This document shows, piece after piece, positions 2,585 to 61,907 of a DNA stretch of 64,000 bases. The notes under the pieces were generated by a model that saw only the letters and a program-made list of their open reading frames with translations, had not been told where the DNA came from and did no database searches. This DNA is from Leucoraja ocellata. Its lineage: Eukaryota. The first letter of the stretch is position 1. Each line of letters opens with the position of its first letter. The DNA lies in the NCBI GenBank assembly GCA_036785375.1, contig JAWMAR010000711.1, forward strand, positions 62,001 through 126,000, read 5' to 3'. The position numbers were made by a program, and so were the translations under genes.

Positions 2585-4068
2585 CTTATATAAGTAATTA
2601 ACTGGTCCTATTTAAGAATCCCCTACTGTATTGATACACCCCTTATTTATATAATCCTACCTCCTATAAATGGGAAAGTACTCACCCCAGCCGTAAATTA
2701 CCTACTGGGTTGGCTGTCTAGTGGTAATTCCGTCCGCTCTTCCTGTCTGGCCCACTGCTCCCTTGCAGTGCGTGGCAAACCTCTTTGCCTCTCCCAGAAT
2801 CCTTAGCCTCTCAAGCGTATTGCGTGGTCTCCTCTCCTCAGCCTCCTCTCCGAAGACTCTCGAGCCAAAGACTCACACTTTTCTCACAGGGCAGTTCCCT
2901 CACTAGGCCGCTCCCTCACTGCCGCTCGCTAAGAGCTGTCCTGCTTAAATTGACTGATAAATTGCCTATTTACCAATTTACACAGCCAATTCCTCAGTTT
3001 TCAACTGTTTTCACCCCTCTCCTCACACTTGGGCTAGAGCCAATCAGTGGTATCTCTAGCTAATCTGTTGCTGCTGTTGCTCCTCCCAAATCTACAGCAG
3101 TACTGTCTGGAAACTTTAATGTAGACACCCCGTCAGGCCCGTGGATGAAATGTCAGAGCCCACATACGTAGATACTGACGCACAACCCAAGTGTGGGTTC
3201 TTACACTGACATGTTGTGGAGGCATGGGGTAGACGTTGGCTAAATACACTGAGAGTCTCAGCTGCCACCTGAACACTGGGTTCCATTCAAATGAACAGAC
3301 TCAATGCAAGGTGGTGGGTGAGGCCAATGACTAATACTGTTTAATGAACAAGAGGAATGTTCTCACTGAATACCCTGGCTGCCCTTGCTGCAGATGCTGT
3401 AACCTGGGGGAGGGATTTAAGTTTGATGAATGTCTTGATGAAGCATTTAAACACAACATTTCAAATAATAAGCTTCTGTTTGGCAGATGTAGACACAAAA
3501 TGCTGGAGTAACTCAGCGGGTCAGGCAGCATCTCTGGAGAGAAGGAATGGTGGCGTTTCGGATCGAGACCCTTCTACAGACGATTTTTTGTCCGTGCAGG
3601 AGTCCGATTTTATTTCCAATTCCTTAATCCGAGTTCAGATTTATCTTGTTATTTAAGACACGGAATTGCCAGAATTGATTTAAACAGCAGTAAAATGGTC
3701 ACCTGCTGTGGGGCTGAATTGATCTACAAATTGCAGGGGAAGGGACAGCTTTTACAATGAAAGCTAAAGATGGAACAAAGGATGATGTAATTGCGTCAAA
3801 AAAGAAGGAGCCCCTGCTTCTTGGTCTTTCTCTGCTCGTGAGTTTACAATGTTCAAAAGTTTCGAGTTTTAGGGACACAGCATGGAAAGTGACTCTTTGG
3901 CACACTGAGTCCACGTTAACCACTGATCACCCATTCCCATTTATCTCATTTTCTCTTCTATACTGAGGGAAAAACAGGGCAAGAAACATTTATACAAAGT
4001 TGATTCGGTCTCTGGGATTCTCTTCCCCAGTGGTGCAGCTGCTGGTCGACTGGTACTGTCATGACTGA

Positions 4069-4399
4069 AAGCCCTGTCCCACGGTACGAGTTCATTCCAA
4101 GAGCTCTCCCGAGTTTAAAAAAAAATCTAACTCATGGTAAGCACGGAGAATGAACGTAGCGGGTACGTCGGAGCTCGGGGACGTCTCTAAGCAGCTCGTT
4201 ACGCTAACGGCAGGTACATGGGAAGACTCGCTAATGGCAGGTAAGCACGGGAAGACTCGTGAAGATTTTTCAACATGTTGAAAAATGTCCACGAGAGCCC
4301 CGAGTACCGACGAGTGGCCATTACCGTAAATCTCCGAGTTCGAATCAGGGCAAACTCGGGAGAGCTCTTGGAATGAACTCGAACCGTGGGACAGGGCTA
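4069..4399. mobile_element. Non-autonomous TIR element (PIF/Harbinger-like MITE)
   Basis: About 46-bp TIR GCCCTGTCCCACGGTACGAGTTCATTCCAAGAGCTCTCCCGAGTTT at both ends; TGA/TTA flanks. Confidence 0.75.
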
Positions 4400-4564
4400 T
4401 TAGGTTATCAATTGTTATTAGGCAGGAGTATCAATGGATATGAGGCAAAGGTGCTGAGGAGAGATGACTGTGACAAGATTGTGAGGCAGAGCTGGCTCGA
4501 AGAGCTGGGTGGCTTCTCTCCCAAGGTGAACAGTTGAATGGACAGTTTACTTCTCTGCTAAAAG

Positions 4565-4860
4565 GATACAAAGTGCTGGAGTAACTCAGTGGGTCAGACA
4601 GCATGGATGGGCGATATTTCGGGTTGGGACCCTTCTTCAGACTCACAGGAGACGCACTTCTATGCCCACGCCTCAACAATAATAATAATAATAATAATAA
4701 TAATCTTTATTTATATAGCAAGTTTTATGCCAGGCTGGAAAACGGTCTCGACCCAAACCAACATCTATCCATGTTCCCCAGAGATACTGCCTGACCCGCT
4801 GAGTTACTCCAGCACTATGTGTCTTTTTATGTCAACCAGCATCTGCTTTTCCTAGTTTCT
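4565..4860. repeat. Inverted pair of PLE terminal repeats around an (AAT)n tract
   Basis: gctggagtaactcag...cttcttcagac, then its reverse complement ...ctgagttactccagc. Confidence 0.7.
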
Positions 4861-4900
4861 ACTTCTCTGCTAACGGGTTAGTTGTTGGTTTGTGTTGCAG

Positions 4901-5008
4901 GCTCCGTCATCGATGAGGTCCGTGACAATGGCAGCTTGGTTTGCCACCAAAGGGATTGGAAATCTCATTGTGGTGATAGTGGCTGAGAGTACACTGATAA
5001 CCAATCAG
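4901..5008 (+). CDS. SLC15A1/A2-like (PepT, POT family) peptide transporter, penultimate coding exon
   Basis: AG|GCT...CAG|GTAAGT, 108 bp, phase 0; APSSMRSVTMAAWFATKGIGNLIVVIVAESTLITNQ matches PepT1 APSNMKSVLQAGWLLTVAVGNIIVLIVA (TM11). Confidence 0.88.
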
Positions 5009-59280: not shown

Positions 59281-59472
59281 CCAAGAGATGGGCTGGGATT
59301 GGGCCCTTCAGGTTAATGTACTTGGCTCCATATTTCTTAAACAATGCTCTTCTGACATAAGCGTGCAGGTTCTGGTACAGAGGCTTCAGCTCATTGTAAA
59401 TATTCTCCAAGTCTGCTTCAAATGTCTTGGAATCATAGAGAGACCTCCAGAATGCTCCGGTATCATGAAAGC
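59281..59472 (-). CDS. ACE: ACE exon
   Basis: 192 bp, [18 protein letters not shown]...LHAYVRRAL...GPIPAHLLG. Confidence 0.96.
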
Positions 59473-60293
59473 CTGGGAAACAGGATGGGAAATAAAATAA
59501 TAGAGACTGTAACATCGGCCAGTAAATCAACTGATGGAAACAAGCACACTGAAAGATACATAGATTGGACATTATAGTAAGTAGTAAGTTGTTAATTTGG
59601 GGGCCAATTTAATTGATATGGACTCAGGGCATCAATTTACATTAGTGCGTGATCTCACTCAAAGTAAAGTTGCAATATTGTAGAATGTTTTTTTAGTCAG
59701 CTGACGTGTGCTGTCCTACCCTGGGCGTGTGTGAGAAAATAGCGTAGAGGGAGTATTTACATTATGTGTGACCAATGCCATCTCTGTCTAGCGAGTATAG
59801 GGTGGGGAGGATGGAAGGGACTTTACATCCAATCCATGTCACCCTGCCAGGGGGTATGTGTCAAGGCAGTGTGGAGGGAAGCTTCATTCTTATCTAACAA
59901 GTCTTGTCCTTGTTCTGGGAGTATGTGACAGGACAGTGTGGAGCAAGCTTTACTCTGTCAAACCTGACATTTTGGGCCCTTATCCCCAGACCCCCACTTT
60001 TTGATTTAAAAACAAATTTACTAGCATATTGCAAATTAACCTATTAGTCTCGAATACAACCCAGTTCCTGAAGAACTTGCATATAAAATCTGTGTCATCC
60101 CTACCTGTGGAGCTTCTGATATAACCATGACTAGTCCCTTGAGTATCAGAGGACAAAGGTTTAAGGTAAAGGGGAAAAGATTTAATAAGAATCTGGGGGG
60201 TAACTTTTTCACACAAAGGATGGTGGTGTATGGAACAAGCTGCCAGAGGAGGTAGTTGAGGCAAGGACTATCCCAACGTTTAAGCAACAGTTA

Positions 60294-60494
60294 AGGGCCT
60301 GTCCCACTTAATTCACGACTTAATTCACGACCTCTGCTGAGTTTGCCCTTGACTCATACTTCCAGCATCGTCGTCATGAGGTCGTAGGAGGTCGTAGGAG
60401 GTCTTAGGTAGGTCGTGATGCTAGTCGTAGGTACTCAGGGTATCAAGTAGGTTGGGGCGTGTTTTCTAGCGTGAATTAGGTCGTGACAGGCCCT
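60294..60494. mobile_element. Harbinger-like MITE inside a CR1 3' end (about 60140-60605, plus strand)
   Basis: AGGGCCTGTC..GACAGGCCCT termini, TTA/TTG flanks, gtcgtagga repeats as in the 10494 element. Confidence 0.75.
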
Positions 60495-60844
60495 TTGGAC
60501 AGGCACGTGGATCGGACAGGTTTGGAGGGATATGGAACAAACAAGTGCAGCTATGGCATGTTTGGGCTGAAGGGCCTGTTTCCACAGTGTATCACTCTAT
60601 GATTCTCTGATTGACCAGGTTCAAAATAACTCCAAGCATTTTCATAAAGAGTTCGAACAGATTTGACCAGTTTATTCAATCTGAGTACCATTAACTATAT
60701 GGGCAGAATGTAAAGTATTAGAAACAAATCAACAGTAAATAGACTTAAAAGTTACAGTATGCAATTACTGCTCCTCAAAGTCTGTCTTGACAAATGAGCT
60801 TTAGCAACTAAAAGCCCAGTCTCACTTCACGCCGAGAACCTCAC

Positions 60845-60988
60845 CGTTGAGTCTTGCCGCCTTGTTGCTTAGCTGCACGTATTTCTTGAAGTTGGTCCTC
60901 ATTTTCTTTCCTGAAGCATTTCTCCATCCTTCCCAGGCAAATAGTAGCTCGTCATAATCATTTGAGGTGGCCAAGATGTGTGTCAGAT
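60845..60988 (-). CDS. ACE: ACE exon
   Basis: 144 bp, AG/GT; DLTHILATSNDYDELLFAWEGWRNASGKKMR...AARLNG. Confidence 0.96.
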
Positions 60989-61907
60989 CTGTGGATGAAA
61001 AAAGAACGTGACACTTGGAAGAGCAGTGTACTGGTTGTTGTACCAATCGGCAAGCCCTCAGCACCTAATCGCACAGGGCAGAACACCTCACCTGGGGGCA
61101 GTTCTTCACACCAGGGCAAATCTCCACACAGCTACAGATACCCACACCAGGGATAAATCTTCAGATAGGTGCAGGTCTCGATAACCTGGGGCAGGTCTAC
61201 ACACCTGGGAAGACCACACAGGGCCATACATCTACAGCAGGGGCAGAGTTCCCCACAGGGACAGCTCACCACATCATGAGCAGTTCTCCACATCACATAC
61301 TAGGGAAGCTCAAATTCAAGTTTAATTTCTTTATTGCTAATAATTTCTGGTGGGGGGGGGGGGGGGTGGAACGGGGGGGATGGGGGTTCTCATTTTGCAC
61401 TGGACCTTTGGTTCTCCAGTTGGTTTTGGTTTGGCTTCTTCTGTAAAGATGAACACAGTGATTTCCCCTTCCCCCCTCCCCACCAACTCCAGTGCACACC
61501 CATTTCTCCCAGCTCTCTACCCCCTTCCCCCTCCCCCTTCCCCGTATATTCCTCCCTCTATCTTTACATTTCACTCCTTTTCTCATCTGACACTCATTTG
61601 CCTCCCTTTCATCTCTAGTCTTTGTCACTTGCCTGGCTTTGTTCCACTTTTCTTCCATCTTGCACCCCCCCCCCCCCACCCCCACCGCATACTACAATCA
61701 GTCTGAATAATGGTCTCGACCCAAATGTCACCCATCCGTGTCCTCCAGAGATGCTGCCTGACTTTGTGTTTTATTGAAGATGCCTACATCGGCAGAAATG
61801 GTGTCCCAGTCTCAGACTGTGAGGATGAAACGTCTTCAGTGCACGAATAACCTTTGTTAACTTGTGATTACGTCGGTGAAACAGTTGCACTGCAGACTGT
61901 AACTCAC

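Follow-up and report, generated by a model that had tools for sequence, protein, structure and literature searches.

Short hammerhead repeats in the Leucoraja ocellata genome as probable dead insertions by Penelope-like elements

A 64,000-nucleotide stretch of the Leucoraja ocellata genome (contig JAWMAR010000711.1, positions 62,001 to 126,000; hereafter the window, with positions counted from its first letter) carries a repeat of about 100 to 170 bp, whose best copies have a hammerhead ribozyme at their head. An earlier note on this DNA proposed that these copies may be a non-autonomous family, similar to retrozymes or short interspersed elements (SINEs), and they raise the question of whether they copy themselves or are merely left behind by the Penelope-like elements (PLEs) whose ends they share. 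We favor the latter, at a probability of roughly 0.78: the repeats would be dead, one-off insertions made by the reverse transcriptase (RT)-endonuclease (EN) of autonomous PLEs and not a self-copying family.

We scanned the window with a regular expression, a repeat finder, blastn, and a profile built from 12 window copies; the profile gave 25 matches at E ≤ 1 (24 strong and one weak, at 56159) and a single match (E = 0.62) in the reversed window. A refined profile delineated 24 arms, or 19 loci once five head-to-head pairs are joined. This amounts to 1 per 3.4 kb, in line with the density of one copy per 3 to 4 kb claimed in the earlier note, every one of whose listed positions was matched within about 15 nt. 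The window is typical of the genome, not special: 80 scattered 10-kb stretches (799 kb) held 354 arms, with 0 in the reversed control, making 292 loci, one per 2.7 kb, that cover 3.3% of bases and are unevenly spread (6/80 stretches are empty). Extrapolation to 3.44 Gb gives about 1.26 million loci. Exact genome matches numbered 11,216 for a 57-nt tail stretch of the youngest subfamily versus 111 for a 31-nt stretch just beyond +139 (the C of CUGA being +1 throughout); tail copies were counted by such exact patterns, and an early search of this genome, whose query favored long copies, served for reference sequences only.

Both open reading frame (ORF)-bearing PLEs in the window end in this repeat, as had been observed before. 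PLE1 (17768 to 20699, minus strand) is a 5′-truncated, frameshifted Neptune-type element ending in a pseudo-long terminal repeat (pLTR) with the hammerhead. Its ORF has an RT with a YIDD motif, a CX4CX2C linker, and a GIY-YIG domain that matches PF01541 at E = 3e-4 and 21.3 bits, just below the curated cutoff of 22.6; Pfam RVT_1 gave no match to the PLE ORFs, nor did a PDB search with the PLE. PLE2 (38231 to about 39540, plus strand), also 5′-truncated and 78% identical to PLE1, represents a second subfamily and retains RT and EN fragments; its pLTR (39441 to 39531) has a CCGA core variant and a 14-bp target site duplication (TSD) read by eye. In near-full-length elements the hammerhead is followed by about 160 nt to the ATG of an ORF that encodes, in order, an N-terminal domain, RT, a CX4CX2C linker, and GIY-YIG. 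The repeat is the 5′ untranslated region (UTR) of these elements and also the 3′ end of inserted copies, and is therefore a pLTR. On sequence grounds, the repeats appear to be the pLTR ends of several Neptune-type PLE subfamilies, with at least five upstream UTR types, each represented by long copies. The parents themselves look like ordinary Neptune-type PLEs with the known hammerhead: they have one ORF that holds RT plus GIY-YIG at its C terminus, a pLTR from a partial tandem, an inverted copy, and a one-sided tail of 30 to 40 bp, the last two features being described for EN-containing (EN+) PLEs in PMC8557442. That source places a CX2-5CxxC linker between RT and EN, also in Nematis, and the CX4CX2C of PLE1 conforms to this Neptune-clade pattern. 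The hammerhead repeat family is very likely present in repeat libraries.

Two side observations concern the parents. Several loci (L258, L259, L263, L280, L283, L288-L290, L313, L334) are, by eye, internally deleted mini-elements in which a pLTR/5′UTR piece reaching +200 to +290 is fused to a 3′UTR or hammerhead piece, which suggests template jumps. The putative ORF start codon at L123 coincides in part with a splice donor that looks strong (minus strand, around 2262-2250); 5′ introns are known in PLEs.

The motif at the repeat's head was correctly recognized from the outset as the minimal type I hammerhead of PLE pLTRs with a palindromic helix III. The CUGANGA and GAAA boxes, helix II, the palindromic helix III, the NUH site, and helix I occur in 5/5 cluster majorities, except at CpG-decayed positions, and match the published architecture (PMC4209133). 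Helix II has 4 bp (88% paired) and helix I only 2 bp (87% paired), while helix III, A-C-G-U, cannot close as a monomer; PLE hammerheads are described as cleaving as dimers in a review (PMC6765202). The head sequence CTGA.GA-A-GGG-loop-CCC-GAAAC-GTH does characterize the best copies, with others decayed: the full descriptor is passed by 3/24 window arms (heads at 17864, 24718, and 54966; 4643 passes partly) and 27/354 sampled arms, counts that are approximate because the descriptor was applied to profile-aligned rows. Among 30 hand-picked rows, one of them misaligned, we found no covariation for the fold (1 double change in 176 cells, with 388/500 shuffles as high). An Rfam scan of the window returned five chance matches and no hammerhead family, and the predicted probability of helix II was only 0 to 0.13 in 4/5 folded 90-nt copies. 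Relative to other positions, the core is no better preserved in short copies (4/290 at the core and 28/696 elsewhere) than in long ones (6/180 and 27/432). A separate conservation count (mismatch of 5.9% versus 9.1%) is biased, because its matches were selected for agreement at the head, and is not taken as evidence.

The boundaries of young copies bear most directly on how the repeats arose. The sample comprises the first 90 loci at which the 57-nt stretch matches on contig C1 (95 arms, chosen blind to their 5′ side, the last 4 listed loci not included); removal of 12 segmental duplicates left 83 copies. Their 3′ ends form a near group at +93 to +99 (41 copies) and a far group at +121 to +136 (42 copies), around two fixed points, +93 to +96 and +124 to +131. 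The 5′ ends lie inside the repeat in 34 copies (12 at +11), at -2 to -9 in 31, and further upstream in 18, where they are scattered out beyond -1400. Among the 49 copies that reach the front edge of the core, 31 end within 9 nt of it, a stop rate of 0.106/nt versus 0.0016 to 0.002/nt upstream, or about 60-fold (0.092/nt at the edge for the 54 non-inverted copies alone). Instead of the random spread expected of ordinary truncation, which the earlier note had named among its grounds for rejecting its own reading, there is thus clustering at the ribozyme's front edge far beyond it. TSDs of at least 9 bp flank 31/53 non-inverted copies versus 40/500 shuffled pairs, in short and long copies alike, which supports the view that ORF-less copies were made by PLE RT/EN.

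The edge recurs in other samples. Of the 149 arms in the 799-kb sample with a head, 113 end at the edge; old subfamilies may lack upstream references for such calls (0/300 random controls were called upstream), and in the better-referenced subfamilies A, B, and CD, 32 end at the edge versus 22 upstream (32/54). Within the window, 13 arms have a recognizable CUGA head, of which 9 begin at the edge and 4 continue upstream (both ORF-bearing copies and those at 54275 and 61700); in the other 11 the head is decayed or the start lies within or beyond the core. Reads of related organisms agree: in run X21, depth drops about 8-fold from one side of the edge to the other, and 5′ loose ends are most frequent at -2 and -3. 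These loose ends are genomic junctions within host transcripts and not RNA ends, with 82 to 96% of repeat-matching reads continuing into unlike sequence as host read-through. Cleavage-defined 5′ ends were considered and rejected: only 2/83 young 5′ ends lie at the cleavage site (+28 to +31), and the sample's start histogram has no step there. Since edge copies retain the core that cleavage would remove, the ribozyme did not make the 5′ boundary; it is a passenger in the short copies, and its cut site sets neither boundary. At six loci (L145, L156, L166, L211, L221, L224), short filler at the 5′ junction is copied from the element head or the target and resembles polymerase-theta templated insertions.

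Head-to-head pairs add a second regularity. In the 799-kb sample, 157/354 arms have a head-to-head partner within 200 bp versus 46 with a tail-to-tail partner. One near and one far 3′ end occur together in 22/24 young pairs (p = 2e-5) and 40/48 sampled pairs (p = 2e-6). A TSD of at least 9 bp surrounds 18/24 and 30/48 of these pairs, respectively, and it is a single TSD enclosing both arms, mostly 14 to 17 bp in young pairs; in the window, one 14-bp TSD surrounds the whole pair at 24681 to 24851. Paired arms are more alike than shuffled arms (0.165 versus 0.245) and belong to the same subfamily in 21/23 classifiable pairs, and the +11 class is joined through a near-perfect palindrome, +11 to +25. 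One near and one far end inside one TSD imply that each pair is a single two-ended insertion. These pairs are the "inverted copy plus one-sided tail" of PMC8557442 and PMC3846280, and by analogy they would fit cutting and extension of both strands by a dimer that uses two internal start sites (PMC11167929). To this our counts add the rule that the two arms of one pair use different start sites.

By analogy with the Anolis PLE studied in vitro (PMC11167929), a mechanism can be proposed in which the dimeric protein would make a staggered double-strand cut. Each 3′-OH would then prime cDNA synthesis at an internal position of the RNA, with a separate start site for each. Extension of both strands would yield two short cDNAs joined head-to-head, often via the 15-nt palindrome at +11 to +25, while extension of one strand would leave a cDNA end to be attached to the target through microhomology or a short stretch of filler. 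The excess of ends at -2 to -6 would mark the RNA 5′ end, at an initiator-like TCAGTC, and priming on the pLTR at the front of the mRNA would run off after 100 to 135 nt, like retroviral strong-stop DNA.

Whether the edge really is an RNA 5′ end is a narrower matter. We hold this run-off reading only tentatively, at a little under even odds, and a block to RT where the pyrimidine tract borders the core is an alternative about as likely. TCAGTC is the commonest form at the edge among long copies, and it fits the initiator consensus. Three ORF-bearing copies begin at -1, -2, and -6 with no other pile-up upstream, and an RT moving along RNA would be expected to stall on the 3′ side of a fold, not the 5′ side. 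Several 5′UTR-bearing copies jump into the 3′UTR or hammerhead, so template jumps do occur, as the start-site reading needs. Other observations weigh against an RNA start at the edge. In the 5′UTR-bearing set (85 arms, 43 after de-duplication, with one further duplicate removed by hand), 5/14 independent copies that reach -1 stop at the edge and 9/14 continue upstream, versus edge stops in 31/49 tail-ended copies (p = 0.12); with a strict start site almost every copy should stop there, unless template jumps happen often. Nor is there a cap mark: G is not in excess before A(-3) (565 versus 1087, background ratio 0.61), and the excess before G(-2) is only 1.56-fold and partly explained by microhomology and filler (20 G(-2) loci by eye: 6 with microhomology, 3 with element-templated filler, 3 inverted arms, and 8 unexplained, two of these being duplicates). 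RNA reads from related organisms have no shared molecule start or end, which fragmented polyA libraries could not show, and the start site of D. virilis Penelope lies about 120 nt before the hammerhead (PMC2377424 and PMC4209133, summed). Ends at -5 may partly reflect fold-back on the palindrome TCAG-T-CTGA, as the next base is the expected one in 5/8 non-inverted cases read by eye.

One-off insertion has to be weighed against three other accounts of the short copies. A self-propagating SINE-like family, in which an edge copy with an internal promoter and an RT start signal is copied in trans and regenerates the 100- to 135-nt unit, would account for the sharp common 5′ end and the very high copy number, and the repeats do have a SINE's defined 5′ end, fixed 3′ end, and TSD. 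An internal promoter is present in D. virilis Penelope (PMC2377424), and the pLTRs of A. vaga are sufficient for mobilization in trans (PMC3846280). In addition, and counting against one-off insertion, one tail variant is commoner in short than in long copies (31/59 versus 4/18, p = 0.03; in a second count, 20/32 versus 1/8, p = 0.017), a weak skew that leaves some self-propagation possible. The variant excess is found mostly in copies starting inside the core, and both of the tail variants are present among edge copies (8 G, 5 A) as well as among long and 5′UTR-linked copies (about 55 A and 45 G by hand count among 100 listed of 216 5′UTR-joined copies). Long copies exist in every young subfamily examined, including all of the five or more UTR types; junctions, filler, and TSDs are specific to each locus, with an upstream flank shared only by segmental duplicates; and the core is no better kept in short copies. 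At the two diagnostic sites examined, we found neither a private variant of edge copies nor any positive sign of a self-copying lineage. The separate non-autonomous family that the earlier note envisaged is therefore not borne out, and we consider it improbable.

Non-long terminal repeat (LTR) retrozymes, in which tandem units are excised by the hammerhead, circularized, and reinserted, resemble the repeats in being short and ORF-less, with a type I hammerhead, pLTR relatedness, and dispersed monomers (PMC7229834; 10.64898/2026.07.22.740005), and those of vertebrates originate from pLTRs and also exist as dispersed monomers (10.64898/2026.07.22.740005). The chondrichthyan retrozyme families listed with the latter study might include this unit. 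Retrozymes are defined in these sources by tandem complete-hammerhead units and circular RNAs, whereas the copies here are solo or head-to-head, and their boundaries, unlike those of retrozymes, are not set by cleavage. Only 1 of 24 tandem arrays (period of at least 50, in 863 kb) overlaps the repeat, and it lacks the core; the copies are unpermuted and still contain the core sequence on the upstream side of the cut site; and few 5′ ends lie at +28 to +31 and few arms pass the full descriptor (counts above). The retrozyme reading is thus largely refuted for the short-copy population, at least over the 863 kb in which arrays were sought, and we give it almost no weight. With no pile-up at the cut site, almost no tandems, and variants common to long copies, the repeats are not retrozymes, nor do these data show a SINE lineage of their own. 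(At L095:7534-7876, five 66-nt units stand in tandem; they correspond to about +21 to +87 of the repeat and lack the CUGA box.) Finally, the edge could be a 3′ splice site, with spliced host or element transcripts being copied: in most long copies a pyrimidine-rich sequence ending in YAG lies upstream, and a D. virilis intron ends at helix I (PMC4209133). In most edge copies, however, the TSD adjoins the 5′ end with 0 to 9 nt of filler, leaving no exon, and 0/31 edge ends lie at -1 while 15/31 lie at -5 or beyond, which makes splicing very unlikely.

Most metazoan minimal hammerheads are single, with some close opposite-strand pairs, and are "probably related to truncated PLEs" (PMC4209133); like those here, they are type I, with a bulged base before helix II, palindromic positions 15.2 to 16.2, and no loop 3. 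We extrapolate about 1.2 to 1.5 million fragments here, counted by homology and not by descriptor, versus 4,000 to 9,000 motifs in coelacanth and Xenopus, and the sharp 5′ edge is not reported for the published motifs. The EN+ Neptune/Nematis unit, as set out in PMC8557442 and PMC3846280, shares 5′ truncation, partial tandems, an adjacent inverted copy, a tail on one end, TSDs, microhomology joins, and the CX2-5CxxC linker; it differs in that most insertions here are cut down to the last 60 to 135 nt, in that TSDs are 10 to 17 bp here versus 8 to 10 bp in A. vaga (PMC3846280), and in the rule of one near and one far end counted here. Poseidon PAc of Anolis (PMC11167929) likewise has, in vitro, two internal RT start sites that lie next to each other, downstream of the hammerhead; cutting and extension involve both strands of the target, hammerhead cleavage is not needed, and no RNA reads fall at the cut site. 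The PAc ORF starts within the hammerhead whereas the ATG here is about 160 nt downstream, and in PAc both strands used the same start sites whereas the two arms here use different ones. We found no literature report of a 5′-end pile-up at a PLE hammerhead or of this skate family; Repbase/Dfam and subscription journals were outside the scope of the search.

The window's own copies illustrate this range. Intact minimal hammerheads are carried by the pLTR end of PLE1 (17768 to 17866, minus, near 3′ end; the C of its CUGA lies at 17861 and cleavage is predicted after 17834), by a young solo minus-strand copy at 54872 to 54976 with a 12-bp TSD and a start about 10 to 14 nt before the core, and by the plus arm (to +129) of the pair at 24681 to 24851, whose short minus arm runs to +96. 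The other pairs lie at 4563 to 4853 (arms 4563-4645, minus, and 4731-4853, plus, with heads about 89 bp apart and near and far 3′ ends), 15914 to 16080 (meeting at the hammerhead head with an overlap of 8), 24319 to 24489 (far-tail minus arm and short plus arm), and 36452 to 36595 (starting within the core). Solo copies starting from the hammerhead edge occur at 3489 to 3583 (minus, core decayed), 29190 to 29321 (minus, far tail, 12-bp TSD with one mismatch), and 45466 to 45556 (plus, decayed); one at 41104 to 41232 (minus) runs from the hammerhead head to the far tail, and one at 41624 to 41722 (plus) has a CTGATGA head. Two plus-strand copies lack the core, a short one at 17312 to 17358 that starts at about +28 and a far-tail one at 26202 to 26297 that starts at about +28 to +31. 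Old decayed copies lie at 29841 to 29919 and 34428 to 34509 (both plus). Two further old copies extend upstream into 3′UTR, one at 54180 to 54350 (minus; about 74 nt of pyrimidine-rich 3′UTR, end approximate) and one at 61645 to 61763 (plus; about 55 nt, start approximate), the latter without the 3′ part. A 33-nt weak tail match at 56159 to 56191 (minus, E = 0.03) is possibly a very old copy.

Other features surround these copies. PLE1 has a 12-bp TSD with one mismatch and splits a broken minus-strand LTR element (14733-15317, 17516-17625, and 20700-22488; no Pfam match) that we take to be of a BEL/Pao-like family; the junction between the two recurs at G000:C9 ~9.86 Mb (L008, L052) as a segmental duplicate. 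Two ORF pieces, at 40476-40895 and 59132-59608 (both minus), match the Pfam ACE family (PF01401), so an ACE-type gene probably holds many of the repeat copies in its introns; repeats between its exons occur on both strands. A 338-aa open frame at 62595-63611 (minus) with tyrosine-recombinase domains (PF00589, PF13495) presumably belongs to a DIRS-type retroelement or Crypton. Long interspersed element (LINE) pieces lie on the minus strand at 1631-2611, 5922-6494, and 12077-13006, with an ORF1-like SGNH esterase (PF13472) and RT fragments (PF00078 in 12077-13006), and their 3′ ends make up other large repeat families of the window.

Scattered single minimal hammerheads and inverted-plus-tail structures are already published, and the value of these repeats is mechanistic, through junction statistics, rather than in the element itself. 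How PLEs regenerate their pLTRs, and why their insertions carry an inverted copy and a tail on one side, are described as open questions in PMC2377424 and PMC8557442. This genome supplies on the order of a million PLE junctions, covering about 3% of sampled DNA, and two rules that can be counted, a near with a far end in each pair and a stop at the hammerhead edge, both open to direct test in a reconstituted reaction like that of PMC11167929. The fullest version of the proposal, which we consider unlikely as a whole, is that the stubs correspond, in PLEs, to the strong-stop DNA of retroviruses: the mRNA would start at the hammerhead edge, a dimeric RT would prime on both strands of one staggered cut at two RNA sites, and the run-off cDNA would jump by homology to the 3′ pLTR and so regenerate partial tandems. 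If that were true, some solo copies could act as minimal RNA polymerase II SINEs, and the roughly one million copies would preserve, as fossils, the intermediate that accounts for how pLTRs form.

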